Positions 3,202 to 28,820 of a stretch of 48,062 nucleotides of DNA are shown piece after piece. Location: contig JAFCCB010000004.1 in assembly GCA_017610445.1 (NCBI GenBank), positions 1 to 48,062 of the forward strand. Reading direction: 5' to 3'. The number at the start of each line of letters is the position of its first letter. Positions within the stretch are counted from its first letter, which is position 1. The position numbers and the translations under genes are program-made. Origin of the DNA: Candidatus Dojkabacteria bacterium. GTDB lineage: Archaea > Nanobdellota > Nanobdellia > Pacearchaeales > GW2011-AR1. The notes under the pieces are model-generated. The model was not told where the DNA came from and did not search any database. It worked only from the letters and a program-made list of their open reading frames with translations.

Positions 3202-4572
3202 TTATACAATATATTTATCATTATATTTACTTAACAAATCCTTTTGATATTCTCTATTTTTATTAAGAGTATTATAAACATCTTTATCTTCTTCCAAAAT
3301 ATAATTTTCCAAAGATTTTTCTTCCTTATGTCCAACATATTTATCATAACTATGAAGTAAATCATTTAATCCCCCACCCCTTTCTGCAACTTTTCTTATT
3401 GGTTCTGGAACCAATCTGCAACTATCCCTTAAAACTTCAAAAACTTCTAAAAATTTTGAAAAATCAATGCCATTAGCAATTTCAGATGTTCTGATTCCTG
3501 TTCTTCTTTCTTCCTCATAACCTGCTTCAAAACCATTAATAAATCCTTCTCTACACTGAAGATAACCAGCATATACATTTTGTCCATGTAAAAAACCCAT
3601 TTTTATATCCCTCAAACTTATTGGTCCAGCTTTTGCACTATTTTTAATAGTTTCATATTCTCTTTTCTGCATTTCTCTTATTTCAGATTTTGAAAAATCC
3701 CTAATATCGCCAGAAGCATCAAAATCTACAAATCCTAATTTTACTTTATTTGTTCCATTATAAAGAACAATATTTCCTATATGTGCATTGCTTCTACCAT
3801 TATCTGCACTCCAAGTTTGATTATTTTTATCCATTAATTTTTTTAATCTCCCAGTGGCAAAACCCATATCATAATACAAATTCCTTATAGCAAAATATAA
3901 TTCACCTCCTTTACTATTCAGAGGTAATTCTCTTTTACCTTCTCCATTAACTCTGTGAATAAAATAATTTTCAATTAAAAACATAAACTCATCTAATCTA
4001 GTATCTCCTTCTACTTCAACAACAGAAGCAGCTAATTTTCTTCCCCTTACTTTTGTTGGGTAATGCCAATATCCTTTACATTTCATAATAGGGATAATGC
4101 CCTCATTCTCAAGAACTTTATTAAACTTATCAGACATTCTTTTTTCAAATCTAGCAGATTGTAATGGTTGTCCTCCAAAAACTTCATAATCTCCATTATC
4201 ATATTCTTGAACTACTGGCTCTTTAGGATTAAATGAAACACCTTTTAATCTATACAACCCACCATTACCATTTGAAACCAACACAGACCTATACCCACTC
4301 CAAATTCCAGTTAAAGTTATTTTATCTAAATATTTTCTAACAAGGTTTTTTTGCTGTCTATTAGTAATTTGGAGATGGTTATCAATTTCAGAATAATCTT
4401 CTTGCTTTGCAATAATCAAATCATCATTAGGTATTCTTTTCTGAATCATCTTAACTTCAAAATCAGGAACAACTCTTGGAGATTTAAGAATTTTTGGCAC
4501 ACCACTATCTAATTCTGCTCTTCCTTCTGTCTTCATTAATTGGGTGGTGTCTCTCTTAATTAATAATCTCAT
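3202..4572 (-). CDS. hypothetical protein with protein-kinase-like / phosphotransferase-like motifs
   Basis: 456-aa ORF. YRLKGV, NAHIGNIVLY (resembles the HxDxHxGN catalytic loop, but with Asn for Asp) and GFVDFDAS (DFD metal-binding-like motif). Confidence 0.45.
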   Translation of the reverse strand: MRLLIKRDTTQLMKTEGRAELDSGVPKILKSPRVVPDFEVKMIQKRIPNDDLIIAKQEDYSEIDNHLQITNRQQKNLVRKYLDKITLTGIWSGYRSVLVSNGNGGLYRLKGVSFNPKEPVVQEYDNGDYEVFGGQPLQSARFEKRMSDKFNKVLENEGIIPIMKCKGYWHYPTKVRGRKLAASVVEVEGDTRLDEFMFLIENYFIHRVNGEGKRELPLNSKGGELYFAIRNLYYDMGFATGRLKKLMDKNNQTWSADNGRSNAHIGNIVLYNGTNKVKLGFVDFDASGDIRDFSKSEIREMQKREYETIKNSAKAGPISLRDIKMGFLHGQNVYAGYLQCREGFINGFEAGYEEERRTGIRTSEIANGIDFSKFLEVFEVLRDSCRLVPEPIRKVAERGGGLNDLLHSYDKYVGHKEEKSLENYILEEDKDVYNTLNKNREYQKDLLSKYNDKYIV

Positions 4573-13465: not shown

Positions 13466-13536
13466 GCATCCTTAGTTTAGTGGCAGAATCGGAGCTTCCC
13501 AAGTTCCAGGCGCGAGTTCAATTCTCGCAGGGTGCA
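13466..13536 (+). tRNA. tRNA-Gly (anticodon CCC)
   Basis: Hand-folded cloverleaf: acceptor GCATCCT/AGGGTGC, anticodon stem GGAGC/GTTCC with loop TTCCCAA, T arm GCGAG-TTCAATT-CTCGC, discriminator A. No encoded CCA. Confidence 0.85.
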
Positions 13537-13565
13537 TTTAACTCTTTAATAAATAAAATAAAAAT

Positions 13566-23725: not shown

Positions 23726-23838
23726 AAAAAGGTTACTAAACATTCTTTTAAGGGATGTAAATGGAAATAAAGTTCTGTTTCCAGGGTGTTCAACGAAATT
23801 TCTAATTCTCCTAAAGTCTAAAGTAAAACAAAAAATAG

Positions 23839-24029
23839 CTAAAATCTCTCTCAGCCATCCCCCGACCACCCAACTCGAGCCCAAGTCTTGTTATTTATAC
23901 TTTAATTTGTCAAGACTTAAACTCTCGCCCCAGTTACGAGGTGTGCGCCGGTTTTCTCTTCAAGAAAGCAGATAGTTGAAAATCAAAGATTTTCAAGATT
24001 AATAATTTCCCCCAAGAAAAGAGACTCGC
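23839..24029 (-). ncRNA. candidate structured RNA / left arm of a long inverted repeat (family unknown)
   Basis: Visibly GC-richer than its surroundings. The ends pair on the minus strand (GAGUCUCUUUU with GAGAGAGAUUU, needing G-U pairs). A 14-bp helix (23877-23890 with 23911-23924) has 3 U-G pairs only on the minus strand. A 9-bp hairpin lies at 23976-23996. Shares sequence blocks with 26827-26944. Confidence 0.4.
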
Positions 24030-24078
24030 GGTTTTTCTGAATGAAAAACAGCTTACTTAACAAGATTAGAAATTTTAT

Positions 24079-24798
24079 TTACCTATAAAATGTTTTATAA
24101 TAATCTTTTTGAGAGAATCCTAATTCTTTTTGAAGATGATTTACAATTTTAAGAATTGCTCCCTCCTTACCATTTAGATGCTCTTTGATGTATTTATACA
24201 ATTGGGAATCTAATTCTTTTATTCTTGGAAGAATATACTTGGTGTGAGGTTTGTAAGTTCTTTTTGCCTTAAAATATATCTCTATGCAATACCAAAATAA
24301 ATCATTTCTTAGATATTCTTTTTGAGTTTTTTCTATATCTCTATCAAAAGCAACCAATTTATCATATAATTTCCATCCATAATAATATATTTCTTTTTTA
24401 GATAATTTAGAGAGTTTACTTTTAAGCACTTTATTTGCTTCTTCTTTTAATTTTTTGGATATTTCGTATCCATAAATACAATCTGAAAAAAATATTATTT
24501 CTGCTGTTGTTCTTTTAAAAGCATTTTTTTCTTCTTTTAATAATCTTTTAACCCATCTTAAAGGGTTTACAAAAAAGGATACTTTAACATTCCTAATTGT
24601 TTTTACTCCTTTTTTGCCACTTTTGCGGCTCTGGGTTATAATAAATATATCAATATCTGAATTTTTCGATAATTTGTTATTGAAATAAGATCCTGTTATT
24701 AAAGCACAAACAATTTTATTTTCTTTTTTTATTTTCTCTAAGAATTCTTGAGAGATTTTTAGATATTTCTTTTTTAGATTATTCATTTTGTATTTCAC
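24079..24798 (-). CDS. Pol-beta-superfamily nucleotidyltransferase with a helical C-terminal domain
   Basis: ALITGSYFNNKLSKNSDIDIFIIT fits hG[GS]x9-13DhDh. The helical C-terminal half resembles aminoglycoside/lincosamide-type NTase architecture. Overlaps the upstream ORF by 20 nt. Confidence 0.6.
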   Translation of the reverse strand: MKYKMNNLKKKYLKISQEFLEKIKKENKIVCALITGSYFNNKLSKNSDIDIFIITQSRKSGKKGVKTIRNVKVSFFVNPLRWVKRLLKEEKNAFKRTTAEIIFFSDCIYGYEISKKLKEEANKVLKSKLSKLSKKEIYYYGWKLYDKLVAFDRDIEKTQKEYLRNDLFWYCIEIYFKAKRTYKPHTKYILPRIKELDSQLYKYIKEHLNGKEGAILKIVNHLQKELGFSQKDYYKTFYR

Positions 24799-25939
24799 CT
24801 ATCCTTTTTGTAGTTAAGGGGAAGATAGGACTTATAGATTTTATCATTTTAAGATATTCTTCAATATCCTCTTTAGTGGTTTTTTCTCCTCTTTCTATTT
24901 TTTTACTTAATTCATAAATTCTACTTCTAAAAATTTCTATAGCCTCAGAAACTTGCATTGTTTCAATCATTTTTTCTATTTCTTCATTCCCTTCTTGATT
25001 ATCTTGGCGGGATTCATAATGTTTTACAAAATGTTTCGCTAAATTGCAAGCCCTATAAATCATCTTTTTACCTTTTATTAAAGTATCTGGATTTACTTCC
25101 ATATCTTCTAAAGAGTTTGTTGGTAGAAGCGCACAATACCTTAAAACATCTGAATCAATAACAGGATTCCTCACACTTTTTTTAATCTCTTCAATTTTCA
25201 TATTTTCTAATCCTCCTGCCAGATTTAAAAACCCATGAGCACATAAATTGCGCGCAAATGGTTCATCAAAAAGTGTGTTCCAAACTACAAAGGGGATAAA
25301 TGTACCTCTTGGAAGGGTTCTACATCCATCAATACCATAATCTGCCGATTCTTCCGAAAATAATGCAGGACTAACTGCTAAATCAAATATAGGATTTATA
25401 CTTTTAATACTATTAGGAATAGGTGTCGCATGTCTTCTTCTTTTAGAAACAGGATAGAGTCCGGTTAGAGTTTTTGTCAAGTCTAACATTCTTTTTCTTA
25501 AATGCAGAGGATTATATCTTACAGATTCTAAGTGTTCTCTCATCCTGGTTTGAGTATATGTTCTTGATAAATCCAGAAAATATTCTCCATTCTGTTCTAC
25601 AATAAAACCTCTTTGTAGCAATTGCATGAAATGTTTTTGGGAATTTTGTCGGGATTTTTCATCTGTATCTCTATAAGAAGTATATGATTCTTCAATACCA
25701 AAAAAGGATAGTTCTCTTCCCATGCCTTGTTCTGATATTTCTATTTGTTTTTCTAATTCCCCCCTATCTAAATGATTCACTCTTTTTCCTTGATGATTCC
25801 AAGAAGGGTAAAAATATTGTATTTTTTCCCCTTTAGATTGCATATGCCTAGCTATTACATCATTCCATACAACATTTACTCCATGCCCAAAAACTAAGTT
25901 TTGTTTTGAGCTTATTATGGCTGGCGAGTAAAACTTCAT
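24779..25939 (-). CDS. MetRS-like class I aaRS paralog with eroded HIGH and KMSKS motifs
   Basis: Collinear similarity to the MetRS in this window: KFY..., GH, D-IAR...KGE, VSKR/VSRS, FDLAV/FDALI, HGFLNLAGG/HGYLNLGGQ, VLRYCALL/AVRYSLL. It has LVFGH instead of PHIGH, ENMKI instead of KISKS, and no zinc knuckle. Confidence 0.6.
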   Translation of the reverse strand: MKFYSPAIISSKQNLVFGHGVNVVWNDVIARHMQSKGEKIQYFYPSWNHQGKRVNHLDRGELEKQIEISEQGMGRELSFFGIEESYTSYRDTDEKSRQNSQKHFMQLLQRGFIVEQNGEYFLDLSRTYTQTRMREHLESVRYNPLHLRKRMLDLTKTLTGLYPVSKRRRHATPIPNSIKSINPIFDLAVSPALFSEESADYGIDGCRTLPRGTFIPFVVWNTLFDEPFARNLCAHGFLNLAGGLENMKIEEIKKSVRNPVIDSDVLRYCALLPTNSLEDMEVNPDTLIKGKKMIYRACNLAKHFVKHYESRQDNQEGNEEIEKMIETMQVSEAIEIFRSRIYELSKKIERGEKTTKEDIEEYLKMIKSISPIFPLTTKRIGEIQNE

Positions 25940-26023
25940 AAAAATGCATTAATTAGAGGTTTTATAAATTCTTTTGTTTAATTATTTAGTAAAGATTAAA
26001 AACCACCAATCTTTATTAACTGT

Positions 26024-26776
26024 ATGGTTATGCCTATATTAAAATCATATTATGGAAAAATATTTTTTGAGTTTTTAACTCATAAAGATAAACGTGACAC
26101 TATAATCCTCTTAGCCGGATTTCCAGGTTCTAACCAAAAAGACGAAATGATGTACTTTTTTTATGAAAAAGGGTTCAATGTGTTTTTCCCTAGATTTAAA
26201 GGAACTTTTCAAAGCGAAGGAAAATTTCTAGAAACTAATCTTGTTGATGATTTATTATTTTTTATAAAAGAGCTAAAAAAAGTACAGGCTAAAAATCTTT
26301 GGGATATGAGTAAAGTGCATTTTAAAATTGGAAAAATCAATGTGGTCGGAGATAGTTTTAGTGGAGCAATTGCCTGCGGATTATGCGCTTGTTCAGAGGA
26401 TATTTCTAAGATTATTTTGGCTTCTCCAGTATTAGATTATAAAAAACATAATATTGATGGAGACGAACAAGATTTAGATGCTTTAACTTTATTTGTTAAG
26501 AGAGCATATAAGAATCTATATAGGTATTCTTTTAATTCCTTACAGAAAGAAATAAATAAGTTCAAAGAAATTTCTCCTGATTTTTATTTAAAATTGTTGA
26601 ATAAGCCAATCTTATTGTTTCATGACCCCAATGATAGAGCGGTTTCAATAAGACATAGTAAAATTCTCTTTGGAAATATGAAAAATTGCAAGATAATTAA
26701 AACAAATACAGGACATGGGTTTTGCAGGGTATTGGATAAATATTCTAATTTGATTCTTGATTTTCTGAAAGATTAA
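26024..26776 (+). CDS. alpha/beta-fold hydrolase
   Basis: Nucleophile elbow VVGDSFSGAIA (GxSxG), a later HDPNDRAV acid and TGHGF histidine in canonical order. Confidence 0.65.
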   Translation: MVMPILKSYYGKIFFEFLTHKDKRDTIILLAGFPGSNQKDEMMYFFYEKGFNVFFPRFKGTFQSEGKFLETNLVDDLLFFIKELKKVQAKNLWDMSKVHFKIGKINVVGDSFSGAIACGLCACSEDISKIILASPVLDYKKHNIDGDEQDLDALTLFVKRAYKNLYRYSFNSLQKEINKFKEISPDFYLKLLNKPILLFHDPNDRAVSIRHSKILFGNMKNCKIIKTNTGHGFCRVLDKYSNLILDFLKD

Positions 26777-26826
26777 CAATAAACTTTTACAATCTTTACA
26801 TTCTTCTTTTAGAAAAAGATGCAAAA

Positions 26827-26944
26827 GCGAGTCTCTTTTCCCAGCCCAAAATCTTCTTTCTTAAAAAGAAAGAAGCAAAGAAGGGCACGCACCTCAAATT
26901 TAATGGGATGGCTAAAAGCCCACCTGAACTAAGAGAGATTTTAG
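26827..26944 (+). ncRNA. candidate structured RNA / right arm of the long inverted repeat (paralog of 23839-24029)
   Basis: Starts gcgagtctcttttc and ends gagagattttag, the exact reverse complements of the left-arm cores. The ends pair (11 bp with G-U). 8-bp hairpin cttctttc-ttaaaaa-gaaagaag. Shares the ggcacgcacctc and gggatggct blocks. Confidence 0.4.
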
Positions 26945-27014
26945 AAATATAAAGACGGAGAATTAGAAACTCAAGCCACATTGCATTCTCGCCTACGGCT
27001 CGGGTCGTTGAATA

Positions 27015-27110
27015 GGGGATAAAGAGTTCGGCTCCTGCAGAGCCTCTCCCAAATTTTTTTCTCAGCCAGTTCGCTATCGCTCACGGGAGAAATTAACTTT
27101 CCTTATCCCC
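27015..27110. other. GC-rich three-helix structured element (strand and function unknown)
   Basis: Closing helix ggggataa/ttatcccc (27015-27022 with 27103-27110), hairpin ggctc-ctgca-gagcc (27030-27044), helix tctccc/gggaga (27045-27050 with 27085-27090). Confidence 0.3.
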
Positions 27111-27124
27111 AATGTTAAACAAAA

Positions 27125-27482
27125 TTGAAAAAGAAAAGAGCCGAGAGAGAGATACTTCGCAGTAGGAAGATTTACCTTAGGGTGCATTACACTTACAGTA
27201 GGTATTTTTTGTATTGGGGCAATTATTTTCCGAATGCTGATGTAATCAGCTTAAATCCCTTTGGCAATAGAATTATACAAAAAAGGATAGCACTTATTCC
27301 AGTAATCCAAAATAGGATGCTTCCTTTTTCTGCCAAAGAGAATACAGAAAATAAACCAATAACAATACCTAGAAACTGCAAAGTTTCATTAGTTAAATCT
27401 TTCATATTTCTTTTACCTCTCAGTAAAAGAAAGGGCTGATTAGCTTAATAGCTTTTCGGCTCTTTTTTCTACACTTTTTCAA
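27125..27482. repeat. inverted repeat pair bracketing a micro-ORF
   Basis: The left arm ttgaaaaagaaaagagccga (27125-27144) is the reverse complement of 27456-27466 plus 27474-27482, which carry a 7-nt insertion between them. The core gaaaagagcc resembles the cassette core gaaaagagac at 24016. Confidence 0.6.
27223..27405 (-). CDS. small membrane protein (two TM helices), hypothetical
   Basis: 60-aa ORF, FLGIVIGLFSVFSLA and ILFWITGISAILFCIILL. More plausible than the overlapping plus-strand 104-aa ORF. Confidence 0.3.
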   Translation of the reverse strand: MKDLTNETLQFLGIVIGLFSVFSLAEKGSILFWITGISAILFCIILLPKGFKLITSAFGK

Positions 27483-27584
27483 CTATCGTTTAACAGCAGA
27501 TAAAAAGTAAAATTCTTGCAGAATTTTTCCAAATTCGCCTTTGGCGAACTTTTTTTAATCTTAATGTTAAATCTAAATTCATAT

Positions 27585-27987
27585 CTAAATTAAAGAAATA
27601 GCCTCATCAGGCCTAATTATTTTTATCCTTTGATATTCTTTCAAGTTCAATAAATGCTTATCTTGACTAATAATTAAATCTGCATTTCCTGTTATTCCAG
27701 CTTCAAGAAATTTATTATCATCTAAATCATCTTTTATCACATTAATTTTTATAGTTGGTTCTACCATAATTAAATTTTCAATAATAATGTTTTTCCATTC
27801 ATATATCATTTCTTTTGGCATTTGAATTTTAAAATTTAATAGTGTTTTAATTAATTCATCAATAATTTCCATAGAACTAACTAAATCAATTTTTCTTTCT
27901 CTCCATTTTTCTATTATCTTAGAACAGAAATTACCTTTCCAGAAGATTCCTGATACAAATACATTTGTAATCTAAAACTAATCTCAT
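27585..27987 (-). pseudogene. PIN-domain toxin, interrupted by a 1-nt insertion after codon 6
   Basis: ATG at 27987 reads MRLVLD. Skipping one T at about 27969-27970 continues as TNVFVSGIFWKGNFCSKIIEKW...ISQDKHLLNL, a PIN fold with the D-T-N-V acidic motif at the break point. Confidence 0.6.
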
Positions 27988-28091
27988 TTTCAGAAGATTC
28001 TCAATTTTTCGTAAATTCTAAAATTTGTTTTATAACAAATTTTTTGATTTTTTCCTTGTATTTTTAATTGCTTCTTCAATATCAGATTGTT

Positions 28092-28304
28092 TTAATTCTT
28101 TCTTTTTTGCAAATTCTCTTGTTTTTTAAGTAGTTTATTAATTCCACTAAAAGAAGGCATTTCCAATTTTTTTAATACTATTGTATTATTCTCCCCAATA
28201 ACTACAAACTTTTCTCCTGCATTAATTTTAAGTCTTTCTCTTAAATTTTGCGGAATAACAACCTGCCCTCTTGAACTAATACTTGTTATTTCAATATTTT
28301 CCAT
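28092..28304 (-). CDS. AbrB/SpoVT-family antitoxin (the C-terminal tail probably frameshifted)
   Basis: SSRGQVVIPQNLRERLKINAGEKFVV is a SpoVT-AbrB swapped-hairpin domain. One more A in the A6 run (28122-28127) would continue as TREFAKKKELKQSDIEEAIKNTRKKSKNLL down to 28030. Confidence 0.65.
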   Translation of the reverse strand: MENIEITSISSRGQVVIPQNLRERLKINAGEKFVVIGENNTIVLKKLEMPSFSGINKLLKKQENLQKRKN

Positions 28305-28594: not shown

Positions 28595-28820
28595 AACTCA
28601 AAAATAAACATTTTAATTCAAAACTTTTTCCATAACACAAAACCACATAAATCTTTAAAAAACAATTTGCATAAATATCAATACCCTAAAAATCAAATAG
28701 GTTTTTGGGGCTCAGAAAACTATAAAAGTTTTCTTGGGTCTTTTAAAAATACCAGCGAACTCTACTAAGAACACGCCCCAATTTTAAGAAGATATCAAAA
28801 ATAAAATATCAAACAAAAAA

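Follow-up and report, generated by a model that had tools for sequence, protein, structure and literature searches.

The 48,062-nt stretch analysed here (the window; contig JAFCCB010000004.1 of archaeal assembly GCA_017610445.1) contains a three-gene cassette bracketed by two long, patchy inverted repeats, which a preliminary description made from the sequence alone had read as paralogous structured RNAs. Our analysis suggests another role for these arms: they are probably the conserved left (L) and right (R) ends of a mobile gene cassette in an integron-like array. This cassette, cassette 1, would open a small array lodged between mcm and rpa, and would read, on the plus strand, TTCAAC-GAAA, the L module (antisense on this strand), the three genes of the cargo, the R module, a spacer of 37 nt and a hairpin of 114 nt, and end in G. 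DPANN archaea have tiny genomes and depend on hosts, and a cassette system driven by the housekeeping-type XerA recombinase would bear on the ways in which they gain and reshuffle accessory genes.

The inverted relationship of the arms holds up, as do the shared blocks and arm-specific insertions by which it had been recognized. The 14-nt inner core GCGAGTCTCTTTTC and the 12-nt outer core GAGAGATTTTAG are exact in both arms (minus strand on the left, plus strand on the right; coordinates in Table 1), and the next-best window matches of the inner core carry two to three mismatches. The internal block GGCRYRCACCTC is confined, in the window, to the two arms (23938-23949 on the minus and 26884-26895 on the plus strand; chance expectation 0.08), and the second internal block, GGGATGGCT, is present in each. 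The shared cores and blocks go beyond what chance would give. Neither a transposase nor an integrase lies between the arms, as had been noted, and Pfam identifies the three genes there as a nucleotidyltransferase, a class-I aminoacyl-tRNA synthetase-like protein and an alpha/beta hydrolase. The outer limits first assigned to the arms (23839 and 26944) were too narrow. Homology extends outward to a common GGAGAATTAGAAA (reverse complement on the left), and the unit continues beyond this, to a GTTCAAC heptamer on the left and to the hairpin, H1, on the right.

The search for further copies, which had been proposed as a check, recovered more than 100 loci (given below as L followed by three digits). 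The first homologues came from a BLAST and nhmmer pass over 80 MCM loci (L040, L004, L084, L082 and L052). A genome search with a pattern made of the arm 3' end and the common outer block (GAGAGATTTTAG N10-40 GGAGAATTAGAAA) matched 38 loci, in genomes of Pacearchaeota and Woesearchaeota; no viral contig contained it. The exact two-core pattern gave no match in genomes, and a metagenome scan with the L tip gave 69 loci. The copies split into two types. L-type copies, which resemble the left arm, have a spacer of 22-28 nt ahead of the tip and end in ...GGAGAATTAGAAATTTCGTTGAAC, and R-type copies, which resemble the right arm, have a spacer of 11-13 nt. One L and one R module, facing outward and 1-4 kb apart as in the window, occur at 10 genome loci. 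Over all loci fetched there are about 31 such L..R units, with 1-5.5 kb of cargo, and none is without cargo. The cargo varies between units (Lrp-like regulators, a radical-SAM protein, secreted proteins and others); no recurrent transposase or integrase was found inside it, and no defence-system assignment. Several genomes carry copies on two or three contigs (for example contigs 2, 3 and 10 of CAYXNX01), and some short contigs stop just beyond the repeats. Multiple copies with variable cargo fit a mobile unit and not a housekeeping RNA gene.

The geometry of the units is fixed. The distance from the L tip to the GTTCAAC junction is constantly 4 nt and that from the R tip to a hairpin about 40-65 nt, the spacer between R module and H1 in the window being 37 nt, and the two tips are perfect 13-nt inverted repeats of each other (TTTCTAATTCTCC / GGAGAATTAGAAA). 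The primary sequence of the arms is near-invariant across more than 100 nt, between genomes with a 20-40% divergence of their MCM proteins; in one diverged lineage (L107) the L and R modules carry matching substitutions (CGCGGAAACC and GGGGACGGCT).

The hairpin is found downstream of every R module, with the layout GYTGAAC-A-GGGSWTAAAS ... variable top ... STTTAWSCCC-GAT-GTTMAAY, and its top holds a smaller, covarying hairpin with a CUUGCAG-type loop followed by CCCAAAUU. In 16 hairpins the outer boxes read G/A-Y-T-K-AAC on the 5' side and GTT-M-A-R-Y on the 3' side (AAC in 15-16 of the 16, GTT in all), and a single unpaired A facing GAT or AAT separates them from the inner box. This 10-bp inner box is 92.5% paired and has compensatory changes in eight of its ten pairs. 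Overall, 89% of cells are paired, compared with 28-49% when the partner is slid by one to three columns; the 16 hairpins were picked by arm complementarity, which biases the covariation figure upward. A generic hairpin scan was uninformative in this AT-rich DNA (34 matches in reversed versus 32 in real sequence), so that only members of the specific family were used. Their lengths are 85-210 nt and they have bulged CC or GAT bases, to be compared with the attC criterion of 57-141 nt with extrahelical bases.

At two loci (L110 and L111) the L module, the hairpin and the R module adjoin each other in convergent orientation, with the junction ...GTTTAAGCCCGAT-GTTCAAC-GAAATTTCTAATTCTCC and the order L, GTTGAAC/ATCGGGCTTAAAC, hairpin top, GTTTAAGCCCTGTTCAAC and an R module that points back. 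This contiguous arrangement is a circular permutation of the order in the window, hairpin-R...cargo...L. In the metagenome the L tip is mostly preceded directly by a hairpin 3' arm (31 of 85 by a strict pattern, more by eye), and GTTCAAC stands before the L tip in about 90 instances; the flank past ...GAT is always GTT plus four variable bases. If recombination takes place between G and TT (G/TT) by way of a circle, the first six bases of a cassette should complement the first box of its own hairpin and not that of the preceding one. In the window, the GTTCAAC of cassette 1 is complementary to GTTGAAT, the first box of H1. Cassette 2 of the window starts with TTAAAC and matches its own first box, GTTTAAC, at 7/7 positions, and the box of the preceding hairpin, GTTGAAT, at 5/7; the second cassette of L140 starts with GTTAAGC, and the values are 7/7 for its own box (GCTTAAC) and 6/7 for the preceding one (GCTGAAC). 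Every L..R cassette begins with TTCAAC and carries G(T/C)TGAAC in its own hairpin, and hairpins with the first box A(T/C)TTAAC still precede GTTCAAC, which belongs to the next cassette. Wherever the bases differ, then, cassette starts agree with their own hairpin, which points to circular intermediates as the likely route. Sites in the same orientation follow each other in tandem, 480 nt apart for H1 and H2 of the window, and further arrays occur in L140, L141, L183, L101, L112 and L115.

Tyrosine recombinases accompany the arrays in relatives. The one next to a unit in L092 was used as a tblastn query and has relatives in ten loci. A divergently oriented XerA-family gene starts 79-98 nt from the cassette junction in L092, L184, L157, L127, L098 and L170, and the gene is 0.9-2.3 kb away in four further loci. 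The adjacent recombinases (269-283 aa) pass the archaeal XerA model NF040815 (228-237 bits, cut-off 220) and fall under the cut-off of the integron-integrase model TIGR02249 (194-209 bits, cut-off 265), to which the match is split into two stretches at the place of the integron-specific domain. Four unrelated flank families have, between recombinase gene and junction, a 28-bp palindrome of the 11-6-11 layout known from archaeal dif sites (PMC8371274), its end lying 4 nt short of GTTCAAC. Arm complementarity is 10-11 of 11 positions in the flanks of L127/L180, L098/L170 and L157. The palindrome itself is uninterrupted, with the cassette starting 4-5 nt past its right arm, so that the predicted crossover is not in the 6-bp centre. 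The palindrome beside the window array is homologous to the flanks of L157 and L121; the L157 version is complementary at 10/11 positions and adjoins a XerA-like gene, and in the window mcm occupies the place where the L157-type flank has the recombinase gene. L121 has a truncated XerA-like pseudogene at the same position. There (L121, 1-245) a XerA-like N-terminus (MNGLLKKLEENLQLKNYSKETIKGYLNHVKKYLEF...) breaks off at a GC-rich palindrome (GGGGGTGACATATGTCACGTGGGAGC) beside the cassette entry site, and the gene appears disrupted. It was also observed that the inner box (AAGATTATTTCTAAATAAA), in both types of module, is similar to the left arm and spacer of the L127 palindrome (GATTATCAATA-ATAAAC; L127 and L180 flanks) and that the tips of the modules are similar to the palindrome arms in L157 (TTCTATTTCCA); judging by this likeness, the L and R modules may contain recombinase half-sites.

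Proteins encoded in the window include TBP, MCM, an RPA-like protein, aIF2-beta, aIF1A, FtsZ, DNA ligase and several tRNA synthetases, and the nearest MCM loci, with 84-87% amino acid identity, are from metagenome-assembled genomes of Pacearchaeota and Woesearchaeota; the window is therefore a core chromosome segment of a low-GC, Pacearchaeota-like DPANN archaeon. In L003, mcm is followed after a gap of about 10 nt by the box AAACCATATAAATCTTTAAAAAAC and then by rpa, with no array in between; L001 and L002 have a box similar to the promoter-like box before rpa in the window. Since the same box stands directly after mcm in L003 and at 28640-28664 in the window, about 4.9 kb has been gained between mcm and rpa. 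The gained sequence consists of cassette 1 (23789-27114), cassette 2 (27115-27566) and a third unit with a PIN/AbrB pair.

We propose that a XerA-family tyrosine recombinase, encoded elsewhere in this genome and adjoining such arrays in several relatives, excises the cassette as a circle. The circle would re-insert by G/TT crossover at a hairpin base or at the palindromic dif/attI-like site. R, hairpin and L would lie side by side in the circle or in single-stranded DNA (excised cassette 1 would join ...CCCAATG to TTCAACGAAATTTC), and because L and R are inverted copies of each other they could zip into a long imperfect stem tipped by the recombination hairpin. When the adjoining R, hairpin and L of L111 are folded as single-stranded DNA, the prediction is one long hairpin with the recombination site at the tip (-86.8 kcal/mol versus -46.5 ± 4.4 for shuffled sequences, z -9.3). 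The arms might thus lengthen the recombination site, make it more stable or present it, or else bind accessory factors. We favour a DNA-level role for them because they hold fixed positions beside a site-specific recombination junction. As a wider and more tentative suggestion, which we hold with less than even confidence, Pacearchaeota and Woesearchaeota may carry a form of integron-like cassette capture run by XerA-type recombinases, in which the end modules make a folded substrate of about 0.5 kb or encode outward RNAs that control excision. To our knowledge, the large inverted end-module architecture has no counterpart in described bacterial or archaeal integrons.

Several observations weigh against this proposal, in addition to the selection bias of the hairpin set. 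Some cassettes of the same arrays, such as cassette 2 of the window, have a hairpin and neither L nor R, so that the arms are not required for cassette status. The near-invariant arm sequence suits a protein-binding DNA site, and equally a sequence-specific RNA or a recent horizontal spread; several helices form on the sense strand only, through G-U pairs, and have GNRA-like loops (GAGA, GAAA), which would suit RNA. The recombinases lack the integron-specific extra domain and their action on these sites is a prediction; tblastn detected no recombinase gene in the 48-kb window, and the palindrome beside the window array is degenerate (8/11).

The functionally closest known system appears, on sequence features, to be integron cassette arrays with attC sites. 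Integron cassette arrays have been reported in Archaea, and those of Pacearchaeales are integrase-less attC clusters, or CALINs (Ghaly et al. 2022, PMC9668308, whose listed contigs include JAFCEP010000040.1 and JAFCFW010000002.1). The arrays described here share with integrons promoter-poor cassettes with variable cargo, tandem sites in the same orientation, a toxin-antitoxin cassette, a predicted G/TT crossover with the first bases of a cassette complementing its own site, and a divergent tyrosine recombinase gene beside the first cassette, the last in relatives and not in the window. As in attC, an imperfect palindrome ends the cassette, with an outer 7-bp box (...AAC / GTT...), an unpaired spacer and an inner box; this is a likeness of layout, with GTTGAAT...GTTAAAC in H1 corresponding to the attC outer box RYYYAAC...GTTRRRY. 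Unlike in integrons, the adjacent recombinases are XerA-type proteins without the IntI-specific insertion, the hairpins are 85-210 nt long with a conserved internal hairpin followed by CCCAAATT, and many cassettes bear conserved inverted end modules of 150-250 bp.

Mobile elements that exploit Xer recombinases offer a second comparison. The CTX-phi attachment site is a folded single-stranded hairpin, and in Acinetobacter plasmids the dif modules hold units of cargo between inverted sites. The units described here likewise have a hairpin as site, as in CTX-phi, and cargo between inverted sequences, as in dif modules. In common with the Xer-exploiting elements CTX-phi, TLC and GGI (compare also the dif modules; Xer review, PMC5357621), they encode no recombinase and accumulate beside a 28-bp 11-6-11 Xer-type site and a xer gene. 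They differ in that the junction lies 4-5 nt outside the 28-bp palindrome and not in its 6-bp spacer, and from dif modules in that the repeated unit is a long hairpin and not a copy of dif. A 2021 review describes no such elements for archaeal XerA (PMC8371274), and our limited literature search found no description of the end modules or of XerA-linked cassette arrays, so that we regard their novelty as tentative. If the proposal is true, gene capture of the integron kind takes place without a specialised integron integrase, which bears on the evolution of integrons from Xer systems. It would also account for hypervariable islands between core genes, such as mcm and rpa, and the L/R tips with the hairpin would give a signature by which mobile cargo can be recognized in uncultured archaea; as a discrete addition, the conserved end modules lend themselves to deletion or swapping in recombination assays.

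Among the alternatives, the RNA interpretation survives best, and we still consider it unlikely. It would make the arms two paralogous structured noncoding RNA genes or 3'-untranslated-region elements, transcribed outward, each with its own promoter-like A/T box (AAAAAAGATTATTTC...) and a terminal hairpin with a U-tract, and acting for example in the regulation of cassette expression or excision. The sense-strand folds of both arms are indeed better than those of shuffled sequence (-61.2 kcal/mol, z -3.6, for the left arm and -32.2 kcal/mol, z -2.95, for the right, each in the sense of the adjacent gene). They include a conserved hairpin, RAGA-GAGA-UUUU(AG), with a GNRA-type loop and G-U pairs that become C-A on the other strand; in L, a conserved GAGA-loop hairpin is followed by UAUUUUUU. 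In L084 a TATA-like run stands about 25 nt ahead of the module, and small 5' hairpins covary (GAAACGAAGUUUC versus CAAAACUGAAAGUUUUG, GUCCGAAGGAC versus UUUCUUGAAGAGAAA). However, Rfam yielded no credible match over either arm or over five homologous loci even at E<=10, and at gathering threshold it reported three tRNAs only and nothing over the arms. Covariation terms from RNAalifold are near zero (-0.11 kcal/mol for L, n=16, and +0.31 kcal/mol for R, n=21): most predicted pairs never vary and just two pairs per module show double changes, in sequences that are too conserved for a decisive test.

The individual helices fare no better across the family. The 11-bp helix said to close each arm forms in the folds of both window arms, in the sense of the adjacent gene, but otherwise in only one or two copies, such as L116, because typical copies carry AAAAAAGATTATTTC in place of the GAGTCTCTTTTC of the window. 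The 14-bp helix with three U-G pairs is part of the minimum-free-energy structure of the left arm, but it sits in an optional 54-nt insertion that is rare in the family (present in the window, L084 and L091, as a variant in L090, L113 and L114, and missing from other L-type copies). Spacers of variable length follow GAGAGAUUUUAG, the position of the modules is locked to the recombination junction, and stem-loops with CGAAG are classic stable mini-hairpins of DNA as well. The arms do lie 3' of the two divergent transcription units in the window, as described; in most other units the cargo is co-oriented and L is upstream and antisense. Only the left arm is a clear GC island (0.50): the right arm fits less well (0.36-0.41), and the stronger island on that side (0.51, at 26950-27050) covers the downstream spacer and hairpin, outside the arm. 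The near-zero covariation and the helices missing from typical copies leave the view of the arms as paralogous structured RNAs unsupported. The preliminary description would have given up that view for arms that hit a known RNA or IS/MITE family, or that have neither further copies nor covariation, with transcripts ending ahead of them; this holds in part, as the arms belong to a mobile-element family and show no covariation, yet further copies exist.

Other RNA-related candidates were rejected: rRNA leaders (no rRNA downstream in 18 loci), an intron-bearing tRNA, an idea that came from the tRNA-Asn of L052 (the arms have no acceptor or T-arm complement), and 5S RNA, signal recognition particle RNA and RNase P (no conserved motifs by eye, a motif reading only). 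Small conserved open reading frames (ORFs) in the arms are ruled out by frame-breaking spacers of variable length and by stops in L084.

We judge it very unlikely that the arms are the terminal inverted repeats of a non-autonomous cargo transposon, moved in trans by an unseen transposase independently of the hairpin. The perfect 13-nt tips with long subterminal homology, the variable cargo, the several copies per genome without a transposase inside and the short contigs that end just outside the repeats all recall miniature or cargo transposons with such termini. Against this, the tips are not flanked by a target-site duplication (one side reads GAAA, the other CTCAA, CTTGC or CTCAC), and their position relative to the recombination hairpin is constant, the left tip 4 nt from GTTCAAC and the right tip about 40-65 nt from the hairpin. 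No recurrent transposase was found near units, and no empty or solo units were seen. Even less probable is that the arms are insulator or terminator modules that stop outgoing transcription and are inverted since they are needed on both sides: each arm of the window is 3' of a transcription unit and the sense strands have U-tracts, but in most units all cargo genes point to R with L upstream, R carries a U4 run only, and more than 100 nt of near-invariant sequence would be left unexplained.

The features of the window array, read as a set of putative integron-like cassettes, are listed in Table 1.

Table 1. Features of the putative cassette array between mcm and rpa (window coordinates; a slash between positions or bases marks a predicted crossover).
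Feature	Position	Strand	Remarks
Degenerate 28-bp 11-6-11 palindrome, dif/attI-like	23756-23783	+	TGTAAATGGAA-ATAAAG-TTCTGTTTCCA; 4 nt upstream of cassette junction; 8/11 arm complementarity
Core GTTCAAC	23788-23794	+	Predicted crossover G/TT at 23788/23789, left boundary of cassette 1
L-type end module (left arm)	23795-24050	- (sense)	Aligns with 24 other L-type copies
Parts of L module			Tip TTTCTAATTCTCC 23799-23811; GAGAGATTTTAG 23839-23850; GGCGCACACCTC 23938-23949; GCGAGTCTCTTTTC 24016-24029
54-nt hairpin insertion in L module	23872-23925	-	Bears the 14-bp helix with three U-G pairs
Cargo gene 1, nucleotidyltransferase	24079-24798	-	Pol-beta/NTP_transf_2 fold (Pfam); only weak PADLOC and NCBIfam matches
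Cargo gene 2, 386-aa protein	24779-25939	-	Class-I aminoacyl-tRNA-synthetase-like Rossmann region (Pfam tRNA-synt_1g, E 1e-5)
Cargo gene 3, alpha/beta hydrolase	26024-26776	+	Pfam
R-type end module (right arm)	26806-26969	+	Aligns with 22 other R-type copies, near-identical from GAAGCAAAGAAGG on
Parts of R module			GCGAGTCTCTTTTC 26827-26840; GGCACGCACCTC 26884-26895; GAGAGATTTTAG 26933-26944; tip GGAGAATTAGAAA 26957-26969
Hairpin H1, attC-like, 114 nt	27007-27120	+	Predicted crossover 27114/27115, right boundary of cassette 1
Layout of H1			GTTGAAT, A, second box GGGGATAAAG, variable top, CCTTATCCCC, AAT, GTTAAAC
Variable top of H1			Contains GGCTC-CTGCA-GAGCC hairpin and CCCAAATT
Cassette 2, without L or R modules	27115-27566	+	Starts TTAAAC; first box of H2, GTTTAAC, is the exact complement
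Contents of cassette 2			Small ORF 27223-27405 (-); hairpin H2 27488-27572, simpler than H1
Start of cassette 3	27567-28304	-	PIN-domain toxin fragment 27585-27872; AbrB-family antitoxin 28092-28304
Conserved rpa promoter-like box	28640-28664	+	AAACCACATAAATCTTTAAAAAAC; same as the box after mcm in L003; right limit of inserted array

Cargo genes 1 and 2 overlap by 20 nt, and neither matched a curated family or a known defence system in NCBIfam or PADLOC; gene 2 has the class-I Rossmann region only, with partial MetRS/ValS matches far under cut-off in NCBIfam. A site inside this gene (25750-25762, TTTCTAATTCCCC) is one base off the L tip, probably by chance. The toxin-antitoxin assignment of cassette 3 is based on NCBIfam (TIGR00305 and TIGR01439) and Pfam (PIN_3); the end of this cassette and a third hairpin of the array were not located within the window. 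Just past tRNA-Gly, at 13523-13565, the hairpin profile gave a weak nhmmer match (E 0.016) in AT-rich sequence, which is probably spurious.

The 54-nt insertion of the L module belongs to a family of insert hairpins (GGCGAG-N8-YCTTGAC...AACAAGR) with compensatory stem changes, which is optional in L modules and occurs at L040 17030-17090, L052 13480-13545 and L082 3125-3000 (minus strand). It is also found inside the duplicated 3' ends of tRNA-Asn in L052 and of the aRF1 gene in L082, and the aRF1 site is empty in L031. This insert hairpin looks like a separate miniature mobile insertion. Helices suitable for a bulge-helix-bulge intron were not seen by eye in it, and a diversity-generating retroelement, suggested by the duplicated gene 3' ends in L082, was discarded as no reverse transcriptase is present. 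The tRNA-Asn(GUU) of L052 (13308-13450) is interrupted by two introns, in the D-loop and after the anticodon, was overlooked by ARAGORN and Rfam, and is followed by two partial direct copies of its 3' end.

Variation is also seen in the modules and in the orientation of the cargo. The same two cargo genes, an Lrp-like regulator and its partner, point one way between the L and R modules of L103/L086 and the other way in L107, and cargo may thus be able to invert between the arms. A third and more diverged type of module (GUCCGAAGGACUAAGGAAAUCC...UUUUCUUGAAAAGAAAACUGCGCGCGUCCUC...GGGAGAAAAAUAUUAUUUCC) takes the same cassette-start position at L040 16900-17130 and, antisense, at L117 4225-4420, which suggests that several end-module families exist. 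Finally, a mini-insert of about 25-35 nt, CCC(C)AAAGGG(G)TAC...CTCTTCGAG, with two tiny hairpins, occurs at varied places in the modules of different genomes, namely in the L module of L095 (about 1060-1100) and in the R modules of L092 (about 2110-2150) and L104 (about 4150-4190).

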